DNA from: Acidobacteriota bacterium
GTDB lineage: Bacteria > Acidobacteriota > Blastocatellia > Pyrinomonadales > Pyrinomonadaceae
Direction of reading: 5' to 3'
Assembly: GCA_018269075.1 (NCBI GenBank)
Contig: JAFDVJ010000060.1
Span: 11,079-35,078, forward strand
Length of the DNA: 24,000 nucleotides
In this document: positions 749-13,084 of the stretch, one piece after another
Position numbering within the stretch: position 1 is the stretch's first letter
Layout of the letters: each line of letters opens with the position of its first letter
Program-made: the position numbers and the translations under genes
The notes under the pieces: generated by a model
What the model saw: only the letters and a program-made list of their open reading frames with translations
Database searches by the model: none
Told to the model about the DNA's origin: nothing

Positions 749-975
749 AAATTTATTCTCCTTTTTGTTTGAAACCGGAAACCGACGGGATCGCGCGGCC
801 GAAGCGAATTCTCACGAGATGCTATTTATCGCGGCCGGGTAAAGTCGCGGGACGGTTTGCGTGCCCGCGGCCCGCCGGCGGGTTTTCAGCCGCGCGGTCC
901 GGTTGCCGGTCGTTGAATTATTGGAAATCCCGACTGTTTTGGATTCATAATATTATAAAAACAGACCCGAAAATT

Positions 976-2280
976 ATGGAAGCTGGCGGAAATCTAAAAA
1001 GACAGTTCGGTTTGTGGACGGCCGTCGCGCTGCTCGTCGGGCAGGTCATCGCGGTCGGGATTTTTCTGACGCCGGCCGGGATGGCGAAGGCCGTCGGGTC
1101 GCCGTTCTGGCTGCTTCTGATCTGGCTGCTGCTCGGCGCGATGACGCTGAGCGGCGCGCTGTGCTACGCGGAGCTCGCGGCGCGCTTTCCCGAGGCCGGC
1201 GGGAGCTACGTCTATCTGCGCGAAATCTGGGGCCGGCCGGTCGCGTTTCTTTACGGCTGGATGGATCTGCTCGTCCTCGATCCGGGGCTGACGGCGACCT
1301 TCGCGGTCGGGGCGACGAAGTATCTCGTGTACCTGGTCCCGCTCGGGCCGGCCGCGCAGAAGCTCGTCGGGATCGGGCTGATCCTCGTCCTCGGGACGGT
1401 CAACATCCTCGGCGCGCGGATCGGGGCGAACGTCTTCAAAGCGCTGACGGTGGTGAAGATCGGGACGCTGGTCCTGATCATTCTCTACGGTTTTCTCGGC
1501 GGATTCGGAAACTGGGACAATTTCCGGCCGTTTTTCGCCGCTCCGGCGGGCGGCGGCGGCGCGGTCGCGGGCGGACTGGTGCTCGCGTTTTTCGCGTTCG
1601 CCGGCTGGTGGGAAGTGACGCGAATGGCGGGCGAGGTCGAGAATCCCGGGAAAAATCTGCCCCGCGCGTTAAGCCTCGGGATCGCCGCGATCACCGTGCT
1701 GTACGTCGCGACGAGCGCGGTTTTTATGTATCTCGTGCCGCTCGGGCGGGTCGCCGACGACCAGACTTTCGCGGCGCAGGCCGGCGCGGTATTGTTCGGC
1801 CCGGCGGGCGGCGCGGTGTTCGCGGGCATCGTCGTCCTCTCGGTGCTCGTGACGATGTTCGCCTACCTGCTGGTCTCGCCGCGCGTCTATTTCGCGATGG
1901 CCCGCGACGGCCTATTTTTTCGGAGCTTCGGCCGGCTGCATCCGCGTTTCGGGACACCGCACCGGGCGACGCTCGTCCAGATGACGCTCGCCGTGGTGCT
2001 CGTCCTGACGGGCACGTTCGAGCAGATCATCGGCTATTTCTTTTTCGTCGTCGTGTTCTTCATCGCGCTCACCGCGGCGGGCATTTTCAGGCTCCGCAAA
2101 ACCGCCGGAAACGGTTACCGGACGCCGTTTTACCCGGCGACGCCGCTGTTTTTTCTCGTCGTCACCGGGTTCGTGCTTCTGATGATCGCGCTCCGCGACC
2201 CGGTCGCCAGTTTTTGCGGTGTCGCGGTTGTCTTGGCCGGCTTACCCGTTTATTATTTGGTTTTAGGTTCGAAAAATTAG
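976..2280 (+). CDS. APC-superfamily amino acid (or polyamine) permease, 434 aa
   Basis: Track ORF 769..2280. I place the start at ATG 976 (MEAGGNLKRQFGLWTAVALLVGQVIAVGIFLTPAG). The 69 upstream codons begin at TTG and are Arg/Cys-rich and non-membrane-like. The rest is about 12 hydrophobic helices with the Gly-rich first helix and the FAFAGWW/E region typical of APC transporters. Confidence 0.85.
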   Translation: MEAGGNLKRQFGLWTAVALLVGQVIAVGIFLTPAGMAKAVGSPFWLLLIWLLLGAMTLSGALCYAELAARFPEAGGSYVYLREIWGRPVAFLYGWMDLLVLDPGLTATFAVGATKYLVYLVPLGPAAQKLVGIGLILVLGTVNILGARIGANVFKALTVVKIGTLVLIILYGFLGGFGNWDNFRPFFAAPAGGGGAVAGGLVLAFFAFAGWWEVTRMAGEVENPGKNLPRALSLGIAAITVLYVATSAVFMYLVPLGRVADDQTFAAQAGAVLFGPAGGAVFAGIVVLSVLVTMFAYLLVSPRVYFAMARDGLFFRSFGRLHPRFGTPHRATLVQMTLAVVLVLTGTFEQIIGYFFFVVVFFIALTAAGIFRLRKTAGNGYRTPFYPATPLFFLVVTGFVLLMIALRDPVASFCGVAVVLAGLPVYYLVLGSKN

Positions 2281-2370: not shown

Positions 2371-3552
2371 ATGGCTGAAAAAAAATCAACGTGGCTCAAG
2401 CCGTCGCTTGACTGGCTTCTGATCTTCGTCCCGCTGGCGATTCTTCTGCGGTTCGTCCCGGCGCTCGAAAACCCGACGCTGCTTTTTATCTTTTCGTGTC
2501 TCGCGATCATCCCGCTGGCCGGCTGGATGGGCAAGGCGACCGAGCATCTGGCCGAGCATCTCGGGCAGGGCGTCGGCGGGCTTCTGAACGCGACCTTCGG
2601 CAACGCGGCCGAGCTGATCATCGCGCTGTTCGCGCTCCACAAAGGGCTCGAAGGCGTCGTCAAGGCATCGATCACCGGCTCGATCATCGGCAATATGCTG
2701 CTCGTTCTGGGGCTCTCGATCGTCGCCGGCGGCGCGAAATTCAAGACCCAGCGGTTCGAACGGACGGCGGCGAGCACGTCGGCGACCGCGCTCACGCTCG
2801 GCGCGATCGCGCTGCTGATCCCGAGCGTCTTTCACTTCGTCGCGGCGCAGGTGCCGGTCGCGAGCGGCGGCTGGACGCCGGCCCGGGAACAGAGCCTGAG
2901 CCTCGCGATCGCCTGCGTTTTGTTCGTGACCTATCTGTTCACGCTTTATTTCTCGCTCGTCACGCACAAGGACCTGTTCGTCGGCGAGGCGCTCCAGGGC
3001 GCGCCGCAGGAAGTCGGCCACGAGGAGGAAAAATCGGGCGATCACTGGTCGCGCGGCAAATCGGCGCTGGTGCTGCTGATCGCGACCGGATTCGTCGCGC
3101 TGATCTCGGAATTTCTGGTCGGCGCGGTCGAAGCGGCGCGCGGCTCGCTCGGGTTTACCGAAGTCTTCGTCGGCGTGATCGTCGTCGCGATCATCGGCAA
3201 CGCGGCCGAGCATTCGTCGGCCGTCCTGATGGCGATGCGCAACAAGATGGATCTCAGTCTCGGGATCGCGCTGGGGTCGAGCCTCCAGATCGCGATGTTC
3301 GTCGCGCCGGTGCTGGTCTTCGCGTCGTATCTTTTCGGGCGGCCGATGAATCTCGAATTTACCGTTCCCGAAGTCGTCGCGGTCGTCGCCTCGATCATCA
3401 TCGTCCAGCAGATCTGCTCGGACGGCGAAAGCAACTGGATCGAAGGCGTCCAGCTGTTGTCGGTCTACGCGATTCTCGGCATTCTGTTCTACTTTCTGCC
3501 CGACGTCCACACCGCCGCGACGGAACTATTGCCCAACGCGCCGGCCCATTGA
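2371..3552 (+). CDS. cax: CaCA-family Ca2+/H+ exchanger, 393 aa
   Basis: It has two alpha-repeat signatures, [13 protein letters not shown] and [13 protein letters not shown], separated by an acidic/His-containing loop ([14 protein letters not shown]). The protein is multi-helix and hydrophobic throughout. Overlapping ORFs 2386..3510(-) and 2496..3575(+) are Arg/Asp-rich shadows. Confidence 0.9.
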
Positions 3553-3558
3553 AAATCC

Positions 3559-3628
3559 TGATCTTCGGTCATTGATCTTTGCTCTTCGAGCCTTGACTTT
3601 TGATCTTTGATCTATGATTTTCGCTCTT
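3559..3628 (+). repeat. Degenerate 7-bp tandem array, about 10 in-phase units, consensus TGATCTT
   Basis: Read in heptamers from 3559: tgatctt cggtcat tgatctt tgctctt cgagcct tgacttt tgatctt tgatcta tgatttt cgctctt. Exact or near-exact TGATCTT copies start at 3559, 3573, 3601, 3608 and 3615, all at offsets that are multiples of 7. It lies in an AT-rich spacer downstream of cax. Confidence 0.55.
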
Positions 3629-3697
3629 ATTTCAAAGGCCAAAGCCCAAATGTACTTTTGACAACCGGATCCGGCCCGAACGTTTTCGTCCCTCGAC

Positions 3698-3734
3698 GAA
3701 AAATCCGAAATCCGAAATCCGAAATCCGAAATCG
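3698..3734 (+). repeat. Tandem heptamer array (GAAATCC)n, left arm of a 35-nt perfect inverted repeat
   Basis: The sequence is gaaaaatcc gaaatcc gaaatcc gaaatcc gaaatcg, ending 2 nt before ATG 3737. Its reverse complement cgatttcggatttcggatttcggatttcggatttttc matches 4300-4334 over 35 nt (GATTTCGGATTTCGGATTTCGGATTTCGGATTTTT). Confidence 0.9.
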
Positions 3735-3736
3735 CC

Positions 3737-4300
3737 ATGTCCTGGATCAAAACGATACCCTTTGACGAAGCCGACGAAAAACTGCGCCGGGCGCTCGAAG
3801 CGCAGCGCGCGCTCTACCCGAAGGAATACGGAACGCCGCAGCCGCCGATTCTCGGCGACGAATCGATCGTTTCGACGCACACGCTGATTCCCGACGCGCT
3901 CTATCACGCGTTCGCGACGTTCGGCGTCCTGACGGCGCCCGATCTGCCGCTCGACCGGCGGCAGCAGGAGATGATCGCGACGATGGTCTCGGTCACCAAC
4001 GACTGCTTTTACTGACTGGTCTCGCACGCGGAGTTTCTGCGTCTCGTGACCTTCGACGACGAGCTCGTCGAAAAGCTCAAAACCGATTACAGACAAGCGC
4101 CGATCTCGGAGGCCGAACGCGTGATGTGCGACTATGTCGTGCAGCTGACGAAGGACGCGACCAGGATCACGCCCGATTATCACGTCAAAATGCGCGCCCA
4201 CGGGTTCGACGACACGGCGATTCTCCAGATCACGCTGATCGCCGCCTGGTTCAATTACATCAACCGGGTCGCGGACGCGCTCGGAGTGGGACGGGGGTGA
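3737..4300 (+). CDS. AhpD-like / carboxymuconolactone decarboxylase-family peroxidase-related protein, 187 aa, with TGA 4013-4015 read as selenocysteine (C90-x-x-U93)
   Basis: Track ORFs 3737..4015 and 4046..4300 share a frame (offset 309 = 3x103). TGA 4013-4015 is the only stop between them. The junction reads [20 protein letters not shown], matching the family motif N-x-C-x-Y-C-x-x-x-H with TGA at the second Cys. The N-terminus [21 protein letters not shown] resembles the peroxidase-related subfamily. A hairpin follows the TGA (next feature). The alternative reading is a nonsense pseudogene. Confidence 0.7.
4018..4051 (+). promoter_or_regulatory. Candidate bacterial SECIS hairpin
   Basis: Folded by hand. 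Pairs are 4018-4021 with 4048-4051 (GGUC/GACC), a U.U mismatch, 4023-4024 with 4045-4046, a 1x2 internal loop, and 4026-4031 with 4037-4042 (ACGCGG/CUGCGU, one G.U). The apical loop is AGUUU at 4032-4036. The stem starts 3 nt after the UGA and the loop lies 17-21 nt downstream. No energy calculation or covariance model was run. Confidence 0.45.
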
Positions 4301-4335
4301 TTTCGGATTTCGGATTTCGGATTTCGGATTTTTTT
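4299..4335 (+). repeat. Tandem heptamer array (GATTTCG)n, right arm of the 35-nt perfect inverted repeat, followed by a T-run
   Basis: The sequence is t-gatttcg gatttcg gatttcg gatttcg gattttt-tt-attt. It begins inside stop codon TGA 4298-4300 and ends in TTTTTTTATTT, 9 nt before hutI ATG 4345. Confidence 0.9.
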
Positions 4336-4344
4336 ATTTAGGCG

Positions 4345-5610
4345 ATGAAAGCTGATCTGGTAATTTATAATGCGCGGGTCGTTGGCGGCGCGGCTGACGG
4401 CGGGCCGAAAAAGGGTGCGGCGCTGGCCGGGCTGACGATCGTCGGGGACGGGGCAGTCTCGGTCGTCGGCGGGCGGATCGCGGCGGTCGGGCCGTCGGCG
4501 GAGATTTTGGAGCAATACGCGGCCGAAAACGCGATCGACGCGGGCGGTCGGGTCGTCGGACCGGGGTTCGTCGAATGCCACACGCACGTCGTCTTCGCCG
4601 GCGACCGGCTGAACGAATTCGAGCTCAAGATCCGGGGCGCGGATTATCTCGAAATTCTCAAGGCGGGCGGCGGGATTCTCTCGACCGTCCGGCAGACGCG
4701 GGCGGCTTCGGTCGACGAACTGGTCGCCGAGAGCCGCCGGCGGCTCGACAAAATGCTCGCGCTCGGCGTGACGACGGCCGAAGTCAAGACCGGCTACGGG
4801 CTCGACACCGAAACCGAATTGAAGATGCTGCGGGCGATCTTCGCGCTCGACGCGGCGCACGCCGTCGATCTCGTCCCGACGTTTCTGCCGGCCCACGCCG
4901 TCCCGCCGGAATTCCGGGAAAACCCGGACGCTTACGTCGATCTGATCTGCCGCGAGATGCTGCCGCGGGCGCTCGAAGAATTTCGAAATTCGAGGCTGAA
5001 TTCGCCGATTTTCGTCGACGTTTTCTGCGAGCGCGGCGCCTTCGATCTCGAACAGTCGCGCCGGGTTCTGGAAACCGCCAAAGCTCTCGGTTTCGGGATC
5101 AAGGCGCACGTCGACGAGTTTACGAATCTCGGCGGCGCGCGGATGGCGATCGGGCTCGGCGCGACGTCGGTCGATCACCTCGACGCGATTTCCGACGAGG
5201 AAATTGCGCTGCTCGCCGCCTCCGGCACGGTCGGCGTCGTCACGCCGACGGTCAATTTCAATTTCGGCTCGAAGGAATTCGCCGACGCGCGCCGGCTGAT
5301 CAACGCGGGCTGCGCCGTCGCACTCTCGACCGACTACAACCCGGGCAGCGCGCCGTGTCCGAGCCTGCCGAACGCGATGGCGATCGCCTGCCGCTATCAA
5401 AAGCTGCTGCCGGCCGAGGCCTTCAACGCCGCGACGATCAACGCCGCGCACGCCGTCGGTCTCGGCGCTCAAATCGGTTCGCTCGATGCCGGGAAACGGG
5501 CCGACATTTTGATCTTCGACACGAAAGATTATCGCGAGATCGCCTACGAATTCGGCGGCAACCCGGTCGCCGCAACAGTCAAAAACGGAATAATGGTAAA
5601 CCGTTCGTAA
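4345..5610 (+). CDS. hutI: Imidazolonepropionase (amidohydrolase superfamily), 421 aa
   Basis: Motifs seen: GFVECHTHVVFAGDR (HxH metal site), EVKTGYGL, KAHVDEF, and LSTDYNPGS with a C-terminal SLDAGKRADILIFD. Length and order are typical of HutI. Antisense ORF 4255..5472(-) is a shadow. Confidence 0.92.
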   Translation: MKADLVIYNARVVGGAADGGPKKGAALAGLTIVGDGAVSVVGGRIAAVGPSAEILEQYAAENAIDAGGRVVGPGFVECHTHVVFAGDRLNEFELKIRGADYLEILKAGGGILSTVRQTRAASVDELVAESRRRLDKMLALGVTTAEVKTGYGLDTETELKMLRAIFALDAAHAVDLVPTFLPAHAVPPEFRENPDAYVDLICREMLPRALEEFRNSRLNSPIFVDVFCERGAFDLEQSRRVLETAKALGFGIKAHVDEFTNLGGARMAIGLGATSVDHLDAISDEEIALLAASGTVGVVTPTVNFNFGSKEFADARRLINAGCAVALSTDYNPGSAPCPSLPNAMAIACRYQKLLPAEAFNAATINAAHAVGLGAQIGSLDAGKRADILIFDTKDYREIAYEFGGNPVAATVKNGIMVNRS

Positions 5611-5614
5611 ATTT

Positions 5615-7144
5615 ATGCAGGAAGTTGTTTTAGACGGCGAAAGCCTGACTTTCGAAGAGGTCGTCGCCGTGGCTTACGGCCGGCCGGACGCGCCGCGCGT
5701 GCGGTTGTCGGAAAGAGCCGCCGTCAACGTCGGCCGCGCCGCCGAGGCGGTCGAAAAATTGTTGAAGCGGGGCGAGATCGCCTACGGCATCACGACCGGT
5801 TTCGGGGCGTTCAAGGACCGGATTATCTCGGTCGAGGAGGTCGAGAGGCTCCAGCGGAACATCGTCGTCAGCCACGCCGTCGGCGTCGGGAATCCGTTCG
5901 ACGAGCCGACGACGCGGGCGATTATGCTGATCCGCGCGAACACGCTGGCCCGCGGTTTTTCGGGCATCCGGCCGGAAACGCTCAATCTTTTGCTCGAGCT
6001 GCTCAACCGCGGCGTCCATCCGCTGATCCCGGAAAAGGGCAGCCTCGGGGCGAGCGGCGATCTCGCGCCGCTCGCGCATATGGCCTGCGTGATGATCGGC
6101 GAAGGCGAAGCGCTCTTAGGCGGCGAAAAGATGCCGGCCGCCGATGCGCTCGCGAGAGCCGGCCTGGCGCCGGTCAAGCTGGCCGCCAAAGAGGGTTTGG
6201 CGCTGACCAACGGCACGACGATTATGACGGCCGTCGGGCTGCTCGAAACGCATAACGCCAAGCGGATGGCCGAACTCGCCGATCTGGCGGGCTGTCTGAG
6301 CCTCGAAGCGCTCCACGGGACGACGCTCGCCTTCGACGAGCGGATTCACGCCCTGCGGCCGCATCCGCGTCAGGTGCAGTGCGCCGAAAATCTGCGGTCG
6401 ATCCTCGAAGGCAGCGAGTTTACCCGGAAATTCGACGCCTCGAACGTCCAGGACGCCTACACCCTGCGCTGCATCCCGCAGGTCCACGGCGCGTGCCGCG
6501 ACGCGGTCGCCTACGCCGACTGGATGGTCAAGCTCGAGCTCAACGCCGTGACCGACAACCCGCTCATCTTCTGCGACGAAAACTGCGACGAGATCGAGGT
6601 CATATCGGGCGGCAATTTTCACGGCGAGCCGCTCGCGCTCGCTTTCGATTATCTCGCGATCGCGCTCTCGGAGCTCGGCAACATCAGCGAGCGGCGGATT
6701 ATGCGGCTGACCGACGAGGCGTCGAACGCGCACGTGCTGCCGGCGTTTCTGACCGAAAAGGGCGGCCTCAATTCGGGTTTTATGATCGTCCAGTACACGG
6801 CCGCCGCGCTCTGCACCGAGAACAAGATCCTCGCGCATCCGGCGGCGGTCGATACGATCCCGACCTCGGCCAACGTCGAGGATCACGTTTCGATGGGCGC
6901 GACCGCGGCGCTGAAACTGCGGCAGATCGCCGAAAATCTCGAACGGATTCTCGGTCTCGAGCTGTTCGCGGCGGCGCAGGGCGTCGATTTTCGCCGCCAG
7001 CGGATCGGCGCCGAGAAAAAGCTCGGCCGCCGGACGCAGCCCGTTTACGAGCTGATTCGCGCGAAAGTCCCGTTTATCGAGGAAGATACGCTGATGTACC
7101 CGCACATCGAAGCGGTCCGCGCGCTGATCGACGAAATCGTCTGA
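5615..7144 (+). CDS. hutH: Histidine ammonia-lyase, 509 aa
   Basis: GSLGASGDLAPLAHM contains the Ala-Ser-Gly triad that forms the MIO cofactor. Aromatic amino acid lyase motifs follow (NGTTIMTA, YTLRCIPQVHG, SGGNFHGEP, SANVEDHVSMG). It starts 4 nt after the hutI stop. Confidence 0.95.
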   Translation: MQEVVLDGESLTFEEVVAVAYGRPDAPRVRLSERAAVNVGRAAEAVEKLLKRGEIAYGITTGFGAFKDRIISVEEVERLQRNIVVSHAVGVGNPFDEPTTRAIMLIRANTLARGFSGIRPETLNLLLELLNRGVHPLIPEKGSLGASGDLAPLAHMACVMIGEGEALLGGEKMPAADALARAGLAPVKLAAKEGLALTNGTTIMTAVGLLETHNAKRMAELADLAGCLSLEALHGTTLAFDERIHALRPHPRQVQCAENLRSILEGSEFTRKFDASNVQDAYTLRCIPQVHGACRDAVAYADWMVKLELNAVTDNPLIFCDENCDEIEVISGGNFHGEPLALAFDYLAIALSELGNISERRIMRLTDEASNAHVLPAFLTEKGGLNSGFMIVQYTAAALCTENKILAHPAAVDTIPTSANVEDHVSMGATAALKLRQIAENLERILGLELFAAAQGVDFRRQRIGAEKKLGRRTQPVYELIRAKVPFIEEDTLMYPHIEAVRALIDEIV

Positions 7145-7326
7145 GGCCGGAAAACGGATGGATCGGCTGACACAACTTTTCGGGGACGATCTGGTTTTCG
7201 GGGGGGCGTCGCCCGGTGGCGGTTTTGAGGCCGTGATGCGGGTGGCGGAAAAAATCGGATTTGCGGGAATAAAATAAAACCGACGCGGGATAAAATTGGC
7301 GTAAATCATAGACGGAGTGAGTTGAA

Positions 7327-7875
7327 GTGCAGACATCAGCGGTTACGCTAAGCGGTGAAAAAATTCAGGTCGGCAATTGCGTCGCGGTTTTGCGGCAGGG
7401 CGTCGAGCTTCTCGAAAAGCTCGACGACGGGCTTTACGCGAAGGCCGGCGGGCCCGAAAATTCGTCGGTCGGCGGTCATTTTCGCCATAATCTCGATTTC
7501 GTGACAAATTTTCTCGACGGTCTGGAAAAAGGGAAGATCGATTACGCCGCGCGCGAAAGAGATCCGCGCGTCGAAAACGACCGGGCTTGCGCCGCCGCGC
7601 GATTCCGGGCGGCGATCGACAGGCTCGAAAACCTCGGGGAAACGGTTTTCGACGCGAAAATCGTCGTCCGGTCGGAGACGAATCCGGCTCTCTGGTGCGA
7701 TTCGTCGGCCGCGCGGGAGCTCGAATTTTTGCAGAGCCACACGATTCATCATTACGCGCTGATCCGTTTCAAACTGGCGGCCGAGGGCTTTCAAACCCCG
7801 CCGGAATTCGGCGTCGCGCCTTCAACTCTCGAATATTGGAAAGGCCTTGAGGACAGGGCCGGGGAGCAACGATGA
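7327..7875 (+). CDS. DinB-like (DinB_2/YfiT-type four-helix-bundle) protein, 182 aa
   Basis: GTG start at 7327 with GGAG (7314-7317) 9 nt upstream. His-rich motifs GGHFRHNLDF and QSHTIHHYALI fit the DinB/YfiT metal-binding His triad spacing. The stop overlaps the next start as ATGA (7872-7875). Confidence 0.6.
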   Translation: MQTSAVTLSGEKIQVGNCVAVLRQGVELLEKLDDGLYAKAGGPENSSVGGHFRHNLDFVTNFLDGLEKGKIDYAARERDPRVENDRACAAARFRAAIDRLENLGETVFDAKIVVRSETNPALWCDSSAARELEFLQSHTIHHYALIRFKLAAEGFQTPPEFGVAPSTLEYWKGLEDRAGEQR

Positions 7876-8279
7876 ATATCTTGAGTTGGATTTTGCGGAT
7901 CGTCGCGGCGATCATTCTGCTGCAGACGCTGTTTTTCAAATTTACGGGCGCCGAGGAATCGAAGTATATTTTTTCGACGCTGATGGGCGACAACGAAGCG
8001 GTCGGCCGGATCGGTTCCGGCGTCGTCGAGCTGCTCGCGGTCGTGCTGTTGTTCGTTCCGGGGACGGCGTGGCTCGGGGCCGCGCTCGCGCTCGGGACGA
8101 TGGCCGGCGCGATTTTCAGTCATCTGACGAAGCTCGGCGTCGTCGTCAAGGACGACGGCGGGCTGTTGTTCGGGCTCGCGATCACGGTTTTCGCGGCGAG
8201 CTTCGCGGTGCTGCTGATTCACCGCCGCGAAGTGCCGGTCGTCGGGCCGCTGCTTTTCGGACAGGAAACCGGGCAATGA
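7872..8279 (+). CDS. DoxX-like small integral membrane protein, 135 aa
   Basis: It has four hydrophobic helices. The N-terminus MNILSWILRIVAAIILLQTLFFKFTGAEES is typical of DoxX-like proteins. GGGGAG (7861-7866) lies 5 nt upstream of the ATG. ATGA overlaps occur at both ends (7872-7875 and 8276-8279). Confidence 0.7.
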   Translation: MNILSWILRIVAAIILLQTLFFKFTGAEESKYIFSTLMGDNEAVGRIGSGVVELLAVVLLFVPGTAWLGAALALGTMAGAIFSHLTKLGVVVKDDGGLLFGLAITVFAASFAVLLIHRREVPVVGPLLFGQETGQ

Positions 8280-10078
8280 GGATTGTGGGGCAAATCAGGG
8301 ACAAACGCCGGTGGCTCGCCGCGGCCGGCGTTTGTCTTTTGGCGGGCCTCGCGGTTTATTCGGTCTTCGAATTTCTGACGCCGGCCGATTATGAAACTCT
8401 GAAGGCCGGCCTGCTCGCGCCCGAAAGCCTCGGCGTCGAACGGTTTTCGGGACTCGCGGTCTTTTTCATTCTCGCGGCGGCGACGCTCGTCAGCGAGGAT
8501 CTGACCTGCATCGCGGCGGGCGTGCTGGCGGCGCAGGGGAAAATCGGGCTCTCGCTCGCGATCTCGAGCTGCGCCTTCGGGATCTTCGTCGGCGACATAC
8601 TGCTTTTTCTGGCCGGCCGCTTTTTCGGGCGCAGGGCATTAAATAACAGGTTTTTCAATTATTTCGTCAGCGAAAGCGCGTTCGAGCGGAGCTCGCGCTG
8701 GCTCGAACGGCAGGGAATGAAGGCGGTTTTCATCAGCCGTTTCGTGTTCGGCCTGCGGCTCCCGCTCTATTTCGCGGCCGGCGTGCTGAAAACTTCGTTC
8801 CGGCGCTTTACGCTCTATTTCTCGGCGGCGGTCGCGATCTGGACGCCGATTCTCGTCGGCGCGACCTCGCTGCTCGGCGCCGAGGTCGTCAAAAATTCGC
8901 TTTTCAACCGGAGTCTCTGGCTCGGCATCCTCGTTTTCGCGGCGGCGGCGTTTTTCGGCGTGCGGCTCGTCCAGCAGCTGCTGACGTGGAAGGGCCGGCG
9001 GATCCTGCTCGGCCGGATCAAGCGGCGGTTCATCTGGGAATTCTGGTCGATCCGCGTCTTTTATCTGCCGGTCGTCGTGTACGTGCTGTGGCTGATGGTC
9101 CGCCGCCGGAGCCTGACGGTTTTTTCGTGCGCCAATCCGGCGATTCCGGCGAGCGGGTTCGCCGGCGAGTCGAAGGCCGCGATTCTCGACGGACTCGGCC
9201 GGTCGGCGGCGGCGCAGCCGTTTTCACTGAAATACCTGCTGCTGCGGGACGATCAGGCGGCCGCCGAACGATTGCAAGCGGCGACGGATTTTATGAATGC
9301 CGGCGGTCTTTCGTTTCCGGTCGTCGTCAAGCCGGATGTCGGCGAACGCGGGACCGGCGTCGTGATCGCGAAAGATCCGGCGAAGCTCGAAAAGGCGGTC
9401 GCCGACGCGAAAGGCGATCTGATCCTGCAGGAATTCGCGCCCGGCGTCGAAACGAGCGTGTTTTACTGCCGTTACCCGGACGATGAACGGGGCCGCATCT
9501 TCTCGATCACCGAAAAACGCTTCCCGACGGTCGCCGGCGACGGGCGGCGGACGCTCGAAGAGCTGATCCTCGCCGATCCGCGGGCCGTCTGTCTCGCCGC
9601 GAAATATCTCGAACGCAGCGCCGACCGGCTCGAAACCGTGCCCGGGGCGGGCGAAATCGTCCCGATCGTCGACATCGGCACGCATTCGCGCGGTGCGATT
9701 TTTCGCGACGGCGGCTGGATGAAAACGCCGGCGCTCGAGGAGACGATCGACCGGATCTGCCGCGGTTTCGAAGGGTTTTATTTCGGCCGGTTCGACATCC
9801 GCGCCGGCTCGTTCGAGGAATTCGCCGCCGGGGAAAATTTCCGGATCGTCGAGCTCAACGGCGTGACCAGCGAATCGACCAACATCTACGACCCGCGCTA
9901 TTCGCTGTTCGCGGCGTACCGCATTTTGTTCAGCCAATGGCGGATCGCCTTCGAGATCGGCGCCGCCAACCGCCGCCGCGGCGTCCGGCCGGCGTCGCTC
10001 GCGGAACTGATCGGCCTCGCGCTCGGACGGCCCGCCCGGCGGCCGGAAACCGTTCTTCAGGATGCCGAATGTGCGTAA
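8276..10078 (+). CDS. Fusion protein, 600 aa: N-terminal DedA/VTT (SNARE-associated) membrane domain plus C-terminal ATP-grasp ligase domain
   Basis: Track ORF 7847..10078. The real start is taken as ATG 8276 (MRIVGQIRDKRRWLAAAGVCLL), because the upstream part overlaps DoxX out of frame and is Arg-rich. The DedA-like core spans about aa 57-235 (LVSEDLTCIAAGVLAAQG, GDILLFLAGRFFGRR, FISRFVFGLRLPLYFAAGVLK). An extra helix follows (WEFWSIRVFYLPVVVYVLWLM). The ATP-grasp-like part spans about aa 285-565 (FPVVVKPDVGERGTGV, LILQEFAPG, FYFGRFDIRA, FRIVELNGVTSESTNIYDP). Confidence 0.75.
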   Translation: MRIVGQIRDKRRWLAAAGVCLLAGLAVYSVFEFLTPADYETLKAGLLAPESLGVERFSGLAVFFILAAATLVSEDLTCIAAGVLAAQGKIGLSLAISSCAFGIFVGDILLFLAGRFFGRRALNNRFFNYFVSESAFERSSRWLERQGMKAVFISRFVFGLRLPLYFAAGVLKTSFRRFTLYFSAAVAIWTPILVGATSLLGAEVVKNSLFNRSLWLGILVFAAAAFFGVRLVQQLLTWKGRRILLGRIKRRFIWEFWSIRVFYLPVVVYVLWLMVRRRSLTVFSCANPAIPASGFAGESKAAILDGLGRSAAAQPFSLKYLLLRDDQAAAERLQAATDFMNAGGLSFPVVVKPDVGERGTGVVIAKDPAKLEKAVADAKGDLILQEFAPGVETSVFYCRYPDDERGRIFSITEKRFPTVAGDGRRTLEELILADPRAVCLAAKYLERSADRLETVPGAGEIVPIVDIGTHSRGAIFRDGGWMKTPALEETIDRICRGFEGFYFGRFDIRAGSFEEFAAGENFRIVELNGVTSESTNIYDPRYSLFAAYRILFSQWRIAFEIGAANRRRGVRPASLAELIGLALGRPARRPETVLQDAECA

Positions 10079-10794
10079 TCTTCTTTGCTTATCATCACCA
10101 TCCCGACTTTCCGCTGGTCCTGCTGGCCAACCGCGACGAGTTTTACGACCGCCCGACGGCCGCCGCCGGTTTCTGGGAAGACGCGCCCCGCATCTTCGCC
10201 GGCCGCGATCTGTTGTTCGGCGGGACGTGGCTCGGGATTACCGAAACGGGCCGTTTCGCGGCCGTCACCAACTACCGCGATCCGCGAGCGCCGAAGGGCG
10301 GCTCGTCGCGCGGGGCGCTGGTCGGCGATTTTTTGGCGGGCGACGTTTCCACGGAAGAATACCTGCACGACGTCCGGCGGCGCGCCGGCGAATTTTCGGG
10401 CTTTAACCTGCTCGTCGGCGAGCTGCGGCCGGAAAAGCAGACGCTCGGCTATTTTTCGAACCGCGGGAACGATGTCGAAATGCTCGGGCCGGGCGTTTAC
10501 GGGCTCAGCAATCACCTGCTCGACACGCCGTGGCCGAAGGTCGAAAGCGGCAAAAATCGTCTCCGGGCGCTGCTCGCGGCGGCCGAACCGGACAAGCGGG
10601 AAATGTTCGAAATCCTGCGCGACCGGACGACGGCCGCCGACCGCGATCTGCCCGAAACCGGCGTCGGCCTCGAACGCGAGCGGCTGCTCTCGTCGATTTT
10701 CATTGAGACGCCGGTTTACGGCACGCGCTCGTCGAGCGTCGTGCTCTTCGGGCGCGATTACCGGATTTCGCTCGACGAGCGCGTCTACCGTTGA
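10069..10794 (+). CDS. NRDE-family (DUF833 / TANGO2-like) protein, 241 aa
   Basis: Track ORF 9937..10794. The start is taken as ATG 10069, giving MCVIFFAYHHHPDFPLVLLANRDEFYDRPT. That has the N-terminal Met-Cys and the literal NRDE motif of the family. AGGA (10059-10062) lies 6 nt upstream. It overlaps the preceding gene by 10 nt. Confidence 0.85.
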   Translation: MCVIFFAYHHHPDFPLVLLANRDEFYDRPTAAAGFWEDAPRIFAGRDLLFGGTWLGITETGRFAAVTNYRDPRAPKGGSSRGALVGDFLAGDVSTEEYLHDVRRRAGEFSGFNLLVGELRPEKQTLGYFSNRGNDVEMLGPGVYGLSNHLLDTPWPKVESGKNRLRALLAAAEPDKREMFEILRDRTTAADRDLPETGVGLERERLLSSIFIETPVYGTRSSSVVLFGRDYRISLDERVYR

Positions 10795-10801
10795 CCAACC
10801 G

Positions 10802-10830
10802 TTGGTTTTACGGGCGGAAAGCGTTATAAT
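10802..10830 (+). promoter_or_regulatory. Candidate sigma70-type promoter: TTGGTT-N17-TATAAT
   Basis: The -35-like TTGGTT is at 10802-10807, followed by an exact 17-nt spacer and a consensus TATAAT at 10825-10830. It sits in the 76-nt gap between the NRDE stop and ATG 10871. This is a pattern match only. Confidence 0.4.
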
Positions 10831-10870
10831 TTCGGTGAACGAACGTCAACGTATTTTCGCGCCCGTATTT

Positions 10871-11761
10871 ATGGAATTTCAAAAGCATACCGTCTTATTG
10901 CTCTGTCTGATCGTCGCCTTTCTGTCATTTGCCGTTCCGCTGTTCGGTCAGGAAGCGAACCTGCGCTTCGTGGTCGAAGAAAAACTGGCCAAGGCCGAGG
11001 TCTACCGCGACGGGAAAAAGACGACCGGCATCCGTCTCGAAGAGGTCTGCGACGTCGACAACGACGTCGTCGCGGCGCGCGTTTTTCGCGATTACGGCGC
11101 GATCTTCATCGCCGCGCCGGAAGTTCGTTTCCCGGTCAAATGCGTGTTCGCCGGCGATTCCGAGGTGCAGATGTATCAGTCGACCGCCAATCCGGTCACG
11201 AAAAACGTCGGCGGCACTTCGATCACGCTCCAGGAACCGGCGATGAACGCGCTGCTCGAAGCGGTCGACGAAGCGCGCAAAAAAAATCTCCGGATCTCGC
11301 CGCGCGGCGGTTCGATCGCGGCCGCCCGTTCGTATCAGGACACGGTCGATCTCTGGTATTCGCGGTTCAATCCGGGGCTCGGCCACTGGACCGGTCTCGG
11401 CAAGATCCCCCGGCGCGACGCCGACGCGGTCCGCGGCTGGGGCATCCAGAAACAGGTCGCGAAGGTGCTCGAATGGGAGGCGAAGGGCTGGTACTTCAGT
11501 ACCGATTTCAGCAAATCGATTCTATATTCGGTGGCCGCGCCCGGCGCTTCGCAGCATCTTTTTATGGTCGCGCTCGACGTCGAACAGTTCGCCAGCAAGC
11601 CCGTCCGCGAGATACTCGCGCGGCACGGCTGGTTTCAGACGGTCAAAAGCGATCTCCCGCATTTTACGTATCTCGGACTCGACGAAAGCCAGCTGCCGGC
11701 GCGCGGCCTGAAGCCGGTTTTCGTCGGCGGCCAGAAATTTTGGATCCCGAATCTCGATTGA
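10871..11761 (+). CDS. Secreted LAS/M15-like metallopeptidase (VanY / L-Ala-D-Glu peptidase-type motifs), 296 aa
   Basis: Track ORF 10085..11761. The start is taken as ATG 10871, giving signal-peptide-like MEFQKHTVLLLCLIVAFLSFAVPLFGQEA. SQHLFMVALD (H-x6-D) and SDLPHFTY (D-x-x-H-F) match the Zn-ligand pattern of M15 peptidases. It is roughly 45% identical by eye to 13390..14058. Confidence 0.7.
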   Translation: MEFQKHTVLLLCLIVAFLSFAVPLFGQEANLRFVVEEKLAKAEVYRDGKKTTGIRLEEVCDVDNDVVAARVFRDYGAIFIAAPEVRFPVKCVFAGDSEVQMYQSTANPVTKNVGGTSITLQEPAMNALLEAVDEARKKNLRISPRGGSIAAARSYQDTVDLWYSRFNPGLGHWTGLGKIPRRDADAVRGWGIQKQVAKVLEWEAKGWYFSTDFSKSILYSVAAPGASQHLFMVALDVEQFASKPVREILARHGWFQTVKSDLPHFTYLGLDESQLPARGLKPVFVGGQKFWIPNLD

Positions 11762-11785
11762 CGAATCGGGTGGGAGGTGAAAAGG

Positions 11786-13084
11786 ATGATTTGCCCGAAA
11801 TGCAGCGGTTTGAACGACGATACGAATATTTTCTGTATCATCTGCGGCGAAACATTTCATTCTTCCACAAATCTCCCGTCGACGGTGATGGGCCCGCAAA
11901 ATCCGCTGGAAACGATAATGCCGACGCAGATTTTTCAGCCGCCGCCCGCCGCCGGCGAAGAGTTTTTATCGACGCCGACCGTCTTCGGCGTCCCGCCGAA
12001 TTATAACCAGTCGCAGGCCGGCTTCAACCAACCCCCGCCGGGGTTCGATCAGTCGCAGGCGGGATTCAACCAGTCGCAGGCGAATTTCAATCAGTCGCAG
12101 GCGAATTTCAATCAGTCGCAGGCCGGCTTCAATCAGTCGCAGGCCGGCTTTAATCCGTCATTCGTCGGGTTCAACCCGGTGATTCCGCAGGTCCAGCCGG
12201 AGCCGCCGAAGAGCCGCTGGGTTTTGTGGCTCGGCCTCGGCGGCGTCTTCGTGATCCTGCTCGGCTGCGGGATCGCGGCGGCCGTGTTTTTCCTCTACCG
12301 GCCGACCGGCCCGGCCGAGGTTCTGCCCGATCATCTCGGTTTGTTTTTCCAGAACGGCGATAAGACGGCGATCACCGAGCTCGCCAAAAAGGATTATGCG
12401 AACGCGCTCGACGGCAAGGACAAGCTGCTCAAGGACGAATCGCTGCCCGAGGTCGAGAGCCGGCCGAACCTGATCCTCTATTCCGACGGCAAGGACATCC
12501 CGGTCGGCGATCTCAAGCTCGTCCAGCTCGACACGATCAAGAACGACGGCAAGCTCAAACAGGTCGAGTTCAAGGTGACGCCGGTCGATGGCAAACCCGA
12601 GATGAAGCGGCTCTGGCTGACGGAAAATCTGGCCAAAGGGAAATACGCCTTCGCGCTTTTCGACGGGTTTCTCGACGAGGGAAAACATAAGCTCTGGGCT
12701 TTTCAGGTGAAGAATTCCGACCGGACCGACAATGCCAGTCTGCTCAAGGAGCTAACGGTCGCGCCGAAATCGAAGGACGAGAAGAAGGAAGAAAATTCGA
12801 ATACCGCGACGCCGTCGCCGAGCGCGACCGCGACGCCGAAACCGACGGTCGCCCCGCCGGTCGGGGCGCGGACGGCCTACGCCGGCACCAACAACGTGCT
12901 GGTGCGCTCCGCCCCGAGTCTCGACGCGGCCAAAGTGAACGCTCTGAGGAACGGTCAAAAGGTTTACATTCTCGGTTTTTCGGACAATTACGATTACTGG
13001 AACGGTCTGGAAGGAAACTGGGCCCACGTGCAGACCGAAGGCGGGCAGCGCGGGTGGGTTTTCTCGCCGCTCCTGAGATATTGA
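11786..13084 (+). CDS. Bitopic membrane protein, about 432 aa: N-terminal zinc ribbon, N/Q-rich heptad repeats, one TM helix, extracytoplasmic domain, PT-rich linker, C-terminal SH3b domain
   Basis: ATG 11786 lies 8 nt after GGGAGG (11772-11777). The track used GTG 11777. CPKC..x..CIIC forms a zinc ribbon. Eight NQSQAGF-type repeats follow, then TM helix WVLWLGLGGVFVILLGCGIAAAVFFLY. The linker is ATPSPSATATPKPTVAPP. The C-terminus YAGTNNVLVRSAPSLDAAKVNALRNGQKVYILG...WAHVQTEGGQRGWVFSPLL is bacterial SH3-like. Confidence 0.75.
   Translation: MICPKCSGLNDDTNIFCIICGETFHSSTNLPSTVMGPQNPLETIMPTQIFQPPPAAGEEFLSTPTVFGVPPNYNQSQAGFNQPPPGFDQSQAGFNQSQANFNQSQANFNQSQAGFNQSQAGFNPSFVGFNPVIPQVQPEPPKSRWVLWLGLGGVFVILLGCGIAAAVFFLYRPTGPAEVLPDHLGLFFQNGDKTAITELAKKDYANALDGKDKLLKDESLPEVESRPNLILYSDGKDIPVGDLKLVQLDTIKNDGKLKQVEFKVTPVDGKPEMKRLWLTENLAKGKYAFALFDGFLDEGKHKLWAFQVKNSDRTDNASLLKELTVAPKSKDEKKEENSNTATPSPSATATPKPTVAPPVGARTAYAGTNNVLVRSAPSLDAAKVNALRNGQKVYILGFSDNYDYWNGLEGNWAHVQTEGGQRGWVFSPLLRY
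12005..12172 (+). repeat. Eight tandem 21-bp in-frame repeats encoding NQSQAGF-type heptads
   Basis: Units start at 12005, 12026, 12047, 12068, 12089, 12110, 12131 and 12152. They encode NQSQAGF, NQPPPGF, DQSQAGF, NQSQANF, NQSQANF, NQSQAGF, NQSQAGF, NPSFVGF. The central units are near-identical at the DNA level (cagtcgcaggc[cg]...ttcaat). Confidence 0.9.

Follow-up and report, generated by a model that had tools for sequence, protein, structure and literature searches.

Decades after they were first recognized, tandem heptamer arrays, such as the short tandemly repeated (STRR) heptamers of cyanobacteria, the TAACTGA repeats of Beggiatoaceae and long simple sequence repeats (LSSRs), still have no accepted function, and the same is true of intervening sequences (IVSs) and the PF05635 elements associated with them. 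We analyzed a 24,000-nt stretch of DNA (hereafter, the window) from an Acidobacteriota bacterium (NCBI GenBank assembly GCA_018269075.1, contig JAFDVJ010000060.1, positions 11,079 to 35,078 of the forward strand), in which a selenoprotein gene, designated sel, is bracketed by two pure heptamer arrays in inverted orientation. This locus, together with analogous loci elsewhere, unites the two kinds of element: at operon junctions, one cistron is enclosed by a long stem, both arms of which are pure heptamer arrays. It is a combination of known kinds: heptamer simple sequence repeat (SSR) arrays arranged as a stem, similar to those of IVSs and repetitive extragenic palindromes (REPs), around a resident selenoprotein gene.

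The closest described systems are IVSs of 23S rRNA that carry an open reading frame (ORF). In Coxiella, the 23S IVS has a 28-bp terminal stem that is cut by RNase III, and an S23p (PF05635) ORF follows tandem heptamers whose number varies among strains (PMC4990558). ORF-bearing 23S IVSs (Coxiella, Leptospira, Salmonella; PMC4990558) share with the window one small ORF, a loop of ~400–560 nt, a near-perfect terminal stem of ~28–38 bp, and tandem heptamers directly upstream of an ORF start that lacks a good Shine-Dalgarno (SD) motif. In contrast to these IVSs, which are inserted in helix 25 or 45 of 23S rRNA, the window element is part of an mRNA operon and is flanked by two protein-coding genes, cax and hutI, and no rRNA or other Rfam family was found in the window; its arms consist entirely of pure heptamer array, and its loop ORF belongs to CMD/TIGR01926 rather than to S23p/PF05635, which is the loop gene at three analogous loci described below (L095, L036 and L004). 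The stem of 23S IVSs is an RNase III target in the known cases, and excision of the window stem would be predicted by analogy.

Another related system is the 5′-untranslated region (UTR) of H. influenzae hmw1A, in which a transcribed heptamer SSR forms a hairpin and RNase III processing sets expression (PMC12721329). There, as predicted for the window, a heptamer array upstream of the start codon is one arm of a long RNA duplex. However, the partner arm of hmw1A is a G-rich segment in the same 5′-UTR, whereas in the window it is another array, located past the stop codon, and the copy number of hmw1A phase-varies (at least 11 repeats), whereas the window arms have 4.7 units each. Cyanobacterial STRRs, the TAACTGA repeats (PMC4679880) and the LSSRs of Mrazek 2007 are, like the window arms, pure tandem heptamers at gene borders, often a few nt from start codons without an SD motif; they occur patchily across the phylogeny, and period 7 predominates among them. 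The dominance of heptamers among prokaryotic long SSRs and the location of TAACTGA and STRR arrays before start codons were already known (PMC4679880). With 4.7 copies each, both window arrays have at least three perfect tandem 7-nt copies in or next to intergenic DNA, as STRR-like SSRs do, and the comparison with cyanobacterial STRRs made in a first-pass annotation of this DNA was apt. However, such repeats have been described as direct repeats (only one "indirect" set was reported among 170 in BOGUAY; PMC4679880), whereas the salient features of the window are inverted pairing, arms of ~32 nt and an enclosed gene. Finally, REPs, bacterial interspersed mosaic elements (BIMEs) and REP doublets (REPINs) resemble the window in being intercistronic or 3′ inverted-repeat hairpins flush with stop codons that can stabilize or partition operon mRNA. 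They are species-specific, non-periodic palindromes spread by REP-associated tyrosine transposases (RAYTs), and their loops measure from a few nt to tens of nt, whereas the window has periodic arms and a whole-gene loop, and no RAYT was seen in it.

The 5′ array is (AAATCCG)4.7 at 3701–3733 and the 3′ array is (GATTTCG)4.7 at 4299–4331, each with 100% matches; inspection of the sequence, a repeat finder and Tandem Repeats Finder (TRF) agreed on both. The same three approaches confirmed what the first-pass annotation had described, namely one coding sequence bracketed by 35-nt perfect inverted heptamer repeats (3699–3733 and 4299–4333); its coordinates were essentially right, but off by 1–3 nt. 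The inverted repeat reaches 38 nt at 97% identity (3699–3736 and 4296–4333), and its sole mismatch, G3734 versus T4298, would pair as G·U in sense RNA. The extended 5′ arm, AAAAATCC(GAAATCC)3GAAATCGCC (3699–3736, plus strand), is a C-type array on the sense strand that abuts the sel ATG (3737–3739), and no SD motif was present in it ahead of this ATG. The extended 3′ arm, GGTGATTTCG(GATTTCG)3GATTTTT (4296–4333, plus strand), is a G-type array. It contains the sel stop codon TGA (4298–4300), the array beginning at the second base of this codon, and continues into a U-rich tail, TTTTTTTATTT (4329–4339), which together with AGGCG forms the leader of hutI (4329–4344, plus strand; hutI ATG at 4345). 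A chance origin of the motif density in the arms was excluded because the 14-mer (allowing no more than 2 mismatches) occurred 11 times in the window versus 1.4 expected and in 0 of 100 shuffles; 8 of these 11 occurrences were in the two arms. In total, the window contained two pure heptamer arrays and two degenerate tracts. Rfam searches detected no family, either in the whole window at gathering score or in region 3500–4450 at E≤1, and a literature search for the repeat sequence and for the peptides that it encodes gave no matches other than unrelated primers.

The gene enclosed by the arms (3737–4300, plus strand, 187 codons) codes for an AhpD-like "peroxidase-related enzyme". It scored 105.6 bits against TIGR01926 (cutoff 81.8) and also matched Pfam CMD. 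An in-frame UGA at 4013–4015, within the motif CFY-U-LVSH, occupies the selenocysteine (Sec) position of a CxxC/U redox motif. It is followed by a hairpin resembling a selenocysteine insertion sequence (SECIS) element (4018–4051, plus strand), which folds into a 6-bp core stem (4026–4031/4037–4042) with loop AGUUU, 10–12 nt past the UGA. We collected 80 metagenomic homologs of sel (67–82% identity), 79 of which kept TGA at the Sec codon; moreover, the 18-nt segment CACGCAGAGTTTCTGCGT, located 12 nt past the UGA, was invariant in 34 homologs, synonymous sites included. Because of this UGA conservation and the invariant hairpin, sel is, by comparative sequence criteria, a genuine and widespread AhpD/CMD-fold selenoprotein with a SECIS element, in agreement with the first-pass annotation. 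Exact-protein look-ups with a 92-aa N-terminal fragment of sel and with Cax gave no match.

As in an IVS, terminal inverted repeats (38 nt at 97%) close the element. The predicted free energy of the arm duplex was −70.1 kcal/mol, and the single arms were nearly unstructured (−1.4 and −8.1 kcal/mol). The mean in-register pair probability was 0.99 in three transcript contexts. Pairing in registers shifted by 7 nt, which the first-pass annotation had proposed, is formally possible, but at equilibrium its probability was ~0. The closing stem was present in both the minimum free energy and the centroid structures (z = −4.8), and the predicted duplex covered position −1 of the sel ATG as well as the sel stop codon.

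If both arms are on one transcript, a 38-bp duplex would loop out the whole sel cistron; it would bury the initiation codon, the SD-less leader and the stop codon of sel, and would end 11 nt short of the start of hutI. Perfect stems with ~3 helical turns are canonical RNase III substrates, and for this reason such a stem would be expected to act like the terminal stem of 23S IVSs or an intercistronic hairpin of the REP/BIME type, cutting or insulating sel from cax and hutIH mRNA and setting its translation and stability. We give an even chance to this reading, proposed by analogy with the known systems, in which an IVS/REP-like RNA stem, a likely target of RNase III, would enclose the sel cistron in its loop and insulate sel or cut it from the mRNA of its neighbors. 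Among the readings offered in the first-pass annotation, a long-range RNA duplex similar to an RNase III processing stalk was the best supported, although the bracket was not conserved for sel. Provided that the stem does form and undergo processing, an operon transcript could be divided and one of its genes tuned by simple and evolvable means, as copy number and unit sequence could shift by slippage; the tuned gene here would be a selenium-dependent redox protein beside histidine-utilization genes. HutP-type binding sites with 7-nt periodicity were also considered, as hut genes follow, and were rejected: the unit lacks UAG. Further conceivable features are CsrA GGA motifs, RNase E sites (RN|WUU) in the G-type strand, and complementarity to the anti-SD sequence.

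Inverted pairs of heptamer arrays also occurred elsewhere. When GATTTCG arrays of the same unit were paired at distances of up to 500 nt, inverted pairs outnumbered direct pairs 17 to 3. One example is L095, with the order DUF58 stop codon, C-type arrays, PF05635 gene (2663–3037), G-type arrays and BatA ATG. Its arms form a 41-nt perfect inverted repeat, and also a 75-nt repeat at 84%. Because the 41-nt perfect repeat runs through irregular units, the sequences indicate that the two arms are copies of each other. The L095 contig (CAZFGM010000427.1) belongs to a metagenome-assembled genome (MAG) labeled Alcaligenaceae, but its DUF58 protein was 82–87% identical to those of Gemmataceae, and the contig is probably mis-binned. 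Further examples were L036 (Phycisphaerae) and L004 (Mucilaginibacter), in which 32-nt inverted repeats (97% and 88%, respectively) surround a PF05635 gene. The three loci share one design: heptamer-array arms of 32–41 nt, a loop of ~390–530 nt and one small ORF of PF05635, the 23S rRNA intervening-sequence protein (IVP) family. PF05635 was also the top family among 150 array-adjacent small ORFs, with 4 members versus 1–2 for any other family.

The DUF58|BatA junction could be compared among orthologous loci. L095 has the IVP gene in the loop; in L301, (TCCGTTG)n and (CAACGGA)n form a hairpin of 31 nt at 94%, whose 22-nt loop contains no ORF; and L302 has yet another heptamer. Inverted heptamer-array stems are therefore maintained at junctions even as their unit sequence changes, and the loop may hold a small gene. 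The broader pattern, i.e., inverted heptamer stems at junctions, in loci labeled as three phyla, with PF05635 passengers and unit turnover, may be undescribed. A more general proposal is that such stems are a cross-phylum RNA device, an "mRNA intervening sequence" that would excise or insulate cistrons at operon junctions, with slippage-prone arms whose units turn over while complementarity is kept and with PF05635 genes as the usual passengers; the window would then represent a stem captured around a resident selenoprotein gene. We offer this proposal tentatively and consider it unlikely to hold in full. If it were true, it would connect STRR-type repeats with IVS elements and with what PF05635 does.

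We also examined pure heptamer arrays as a class. The figures from the (GATTTCG)3 survey refer to the matches listed, and phyla follow MAG labels, which can be wrong (e.g., L095). More than 109 genome loci were found, versus ~0.3 expected by chance by our own calculation for the entire collection; they were labeled Verrucomicrobiota, Planctomycetota, Acidobacteriota, Chloroflexota, Bacteroidota, Patescibacteria and others, with 1–3 loci per genome. Perfect period-7 arrays in these loci numbered 165, compared to no more than 2 for each other period from 4 to 12, and about 50 of the 165 had units other than GATTTCG. The mode of array length was 31–33 nt with a second mode at 25–27 nt, and GCGGATT arrays showed the same distribution. 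After stop codons, which the arrays often overlapped, the sense strand was G-type in 16 cases versus 2 for GATTTCG; the corresponding strand bias of GCGGATT arrays in viral contigs was 21 versus 5. Before start codons, GATTTCG arrays favored the C-type strand (10 versus 5, not significant), and GCGGATT arrays of viral contigs more often had the opposite strand there (11 versus 7). These strand counts came from border-specific tests with a filter on GC content at third codon positions (GC3), and the arrays were open in all six frames. The window arms obey both tendencies, G-type after the stop and C-type before the start. Composition-matched permuted heptamers were found at 1, 3 and 24 viral-contig loci, versus 22 for GATTTCG and 54 for GCGGATT; a unique status of the GATTTCG unit is therefore not supportable. 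An assembly artifact, in which longer arrays would be collapsed at k-mer length, was rejected because arrays of 26–34 nt were also present in k141 MEGAHIT, SPAdes and long-read-style contigs and in complete chromosomes. Thus, the window arms belong to a recurrent class of pure heptamer arrays of ~31–33 nt that are found at gene borders in many phyla.

Some members of this class had unusual locations. In two IMG/VR contigs (L254 and L257), a heptamer array of 18–59 nt was present in nearly every co-directional gene junction, with many different units, mostly G-rich and C-poor on the sense strand. In two Verrucomicrobiota loci (L039, 6383–6416; L051, 3601–3633), the (AAATCCG) array, read by hand, apparently keeps the frame of large homologous proteins and occupies an equivalent position in both (...RFL...[[11 protein letters not shown]]...VLLTNGIG...). 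In several Planctomycetota-type loci (L075, L082, L104, L302 and L113), heptamer arrays or stop codons were followed by a small hairpin motif, (a)ccgcttgcgg(ttt).

Arrays were also found within hutI. The window has a degenerate in-ORF heptamer tract at 4978–5012 (plus strand; units GAATTTC, GAAATTC, GAGGCTG, AATTCGC and CGATTTT), which was recognized by repeat search and comparison with relatives. At the homologous site, between EMLPxA and FVDVFCE, four relatives carried a pure in-frame array of 31–34 nt with a different unit in each genome: L192 (4994–5024), L193 (1004–1034), L194 (7637–7670) and L195 (7664–7695), with units ACTCTCG, ATCCGAA, AAATTTC and AAATCGC. Two others (L191 and L196) had longer, non-repetitive inserts there. 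Comparison of these genes points to a persistent array site with conserved length and unit turnover.

The two arms of the window appear to differ in age. In an alignment of the 5′ region, a 5-unit array was present at the site of the 5′ arm, ending 2–4 nt ahead of the ATG, in three relatives (L194, L151 and L111). The L194 leader array opens with the same AAAAATCC as the window and continues with units CAAATCC, AAAATCG, CACATCT and AAAATCG, and the L151 array is near-perfect. In other clades, different heptamers, (CCCGAAC)n(CCCTAGC)n, were located at the permease|sel junction. From these leaders we infer that the 5′ array is old and ancestral to the sel leader. With regard to the 3′ arm, the sel TAA of L194 overlaps the hutI ATG (TAATG), L151 has at most a decayed trace of this arm, and the interval from the sel stop to the hutI ATG is 48 nt longer in the window than in L194. 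If T4298 were C, the sel frame would run through the array to a TGA that overlaps the hutI ATG; the 3′ arm thus has the appearance of a ~48-nt insertion that is specific to this lineage, kept the frame and was later closed by a stop, and a C-to-T change would have given the present sel TGA. The inserted sequence is probably an inverted copy of the 5′ leader array.

Several observations weigh against an IVS/REP-like stem. On comparison of homologous loci, the bracket of two arms around sel appears to be unique to the lineage of the window: L194 and L162 lack the 3′ arm between sel and hutI, and in L111, whose sel protein is 82% identical, the leader array is strongly decayed and no clear arrays are present. 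Inverted and direct pairs were equally common among GCGGATT arrays of viral contigs. When the compatibility of arm mismatches with G·U pairing on the sense strand was tried as a means of distinguishing RNA from DNA pairing, it was inconsistent across the other loci. Pure arrays persist without a partner, as seen within hutI; the purity and equal length of the window arms alone, therefore, do not show selection for pairing. A consensus scan for promoters and terminators detected nothing relevant at the locus. Finally, the reading includes three steps that are inferred, namely, co-transcription of the arms, duplex formation amid translating ribosomes, and RNase III cleavage.

Some of these points fit the idea that the pair is incidental, i.e., that two SSR arrays arose or were maintained independently by replication slippage, were inverted as a result of a general strand rule, and pair with neutral or mildly harmful effect. 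Heptamer arrays are a known slippage-prone SSR class, according to Mrazek 2007 as it is cited in PMC4679880. The AAATCCG unit is common in the family of the window (L068, L193 and L195), 33 nt is the modal array length, arrays stay pure when partnerless, the post-stop strand rule predicts the orientation seen in the window, and relatives occur without the 3′ arm (L194 and L162). However, arrays are rare, with the 1–3 loci per genome noted above, and two arrays less than 600 bp apart that share unit, length, phase and both end variants would be unlikely if independent. The 17 to 3 excess of inverted pairs at short range, the irregular units shared by the arms of L095, and the complementarity kept with a differing unit at the orthologous DUF58|BatA junction also disagree with an incidental origin, which we nevertheless regard as a serious, if less likely, alternative.

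A conditional terminator or attenuator was also considered. Under low sel initiation, the free 5′ arm would pair with the nascent 3′ arm by the U-tract and halt transcription before hutIH. The stem indeed ends directly at TTTTTTTATTT, its predicted stability is very high, and the ATG of hutI follows 11 nt downstream. However, closure of a 559-nt loop is kinetically implausible within the termination window, and the consensus scan found only the U-tract, with no short GC-rich hairpin (loop of 3–8 nt) at the 3′ arm. In addition, sel and hutI overlap (TAATG) in relatives, implying co-expression, and a similar T-rich hutI leader, TTCGATTTTTTCTA, is present ahead of the hutI ATG in genomes without sel or arms (L195 and L196). 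This terminator, which had been suggested in the first-pass annotation, is improbable.

The gene neighborhood bears on the origin of sel. Pfam and tblastn synteny identified an APC-family amino acid permease gene (AA_permease_2; 769–2280, plus strand), followed by cax, a Ca2+/cation antiporter gene of the Na_Ca_ex family (2371–3552, plus strand) that has 83–85% identical orthologs beside hutI or sel in L194–L196. Downstream of sel are hutI (imidazolonepropionase; 4345–5610, plus strand) and hutH (5615–7144). Thus, Pfam bore out the neighbor identities on which the first-pass cax-hutI interval was based. HutI homologs placed the window in Pyrinomonadaceae, with the best relatives 73–77% identical. 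The ortholog of the window permease was directly upstream of sel in 41 of the 80 homologous loci by tblastn, the order in L162 was permease-sel-hutI with no arrays, and the complete genome L194 had cax-sel-hutI. In the most syntenic relative, the 56-kb JGI contig of P0007 (JGI 3300078620), the order was permease-cax-cax, two ORFs of 93 and 82 aa, a PF05635 gene, hutI and hutH, and the two short ORFs would represent a split sel. In L195 and L196, cax was followed directly by hutI with a spacer of 88–89 nt and no sel. Because permease-sel, sel-hutI and cax-sel-hutI synteny is found in relatives, sel is, by gene order, a resident gene rather than cargo and was apparently lost in some lineages.

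This argues against a mobile cassette, another reading of the first-pass annotation, in which the arms would be terminal inverted repeats of a transposable element that brought sel into the cax-hutI interval. Such a cassette would account for the presence of sel between cax and hutI in L194 and the P0007 contig and its absence in L195 and L196, and similar arms do flank PF05635 genes seemingly inserted into operons (L095 versus L301 and L302). However, sel adjoins the permease in 41 of 80 loci and hutI, without the arms, in L162 and L194; the latter has sel with a degenerate 5′ array and no 3′ arm, and the former has no arrays. The cax-hutI comparison proposed in the first-pass annotation thus revealed presence or absence of sel (L194 versus L195 and L196), but not of a whole arm-sel-arm unit. 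There is no target-site duplication, as the outer flanks (...CTCGACG| and |TTATTTAGG) have no direct repeat; no recombinase or transposase was found among the 14 window ORFs scanned by Pfam, the largest ones included; and PF05635 genes are flanked by arms of both polarities (C..G and G..C), which misfits a polarity-sensitive transposase. We consider this origin very improbable.

Equally little credence can be given to a DNA inverton, also suggested in the first-pass annotation, in which recombination at the 35-bp inverted repeats would flip 3737–4295 and switch the gene on or off: perfect 35-bp repeats do exceed the minimal length for RecA-dependent exchange, and an independent Logan contig (L001, SRR24111707; 100% identical to window 4307–12100) begins inside the 3′ arm, but a break at 4307 is expected of a k=31 graph with any 35-nt inverted repeat, the scanned ORFs include no invertase or recombinase, the orientation of sel agrees with synteny in L194 and L162, and other loci of this design are operon junctions whose loops are short, so that flipping them would serve no purpose. 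The sel segment itself was not found on record.

Additional features were observed around the locus. The junctions of the sel-hut operon are insertion hot spots. For example, the PF05635 "intervening-sequence protein" gene of the P0007 JGI contig is located between sel and hutI; in L193 (1–365), a PF05635 gene is followed by (TTTCTTT)3 and then by the hutI ATG; and a Uma2 gene is present between hutI and hutH in L192 and L194. The spacer after the cax stop codon is a decayed heptamer tract both in the window, where T-rich, degenerate, TGATCTT-like units form direct repeats directly after the stop (3553–3640, plus strand; TRF period 21 at 3572–3628), and in L194 (6249–6300, GAAAAGT-like units), and the entire cax-sel spacer seems to be made of old arrays. 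In L111, the closest sel homolog, two short Cax-like fragments (residues 2–46 and 349–390) were detected upstream of the permease at 771–1040, which suggests an internally deleted cax and a gene order rearranged relative to the window. Finally, tandem repeats of period 21/63 (CAGTCGCAGGCGGGCTTCAAT), a multiple of 7, were present at 12005–12174 of the window, within an ORF (11777–13084) that codes for an SH3_3 protein.

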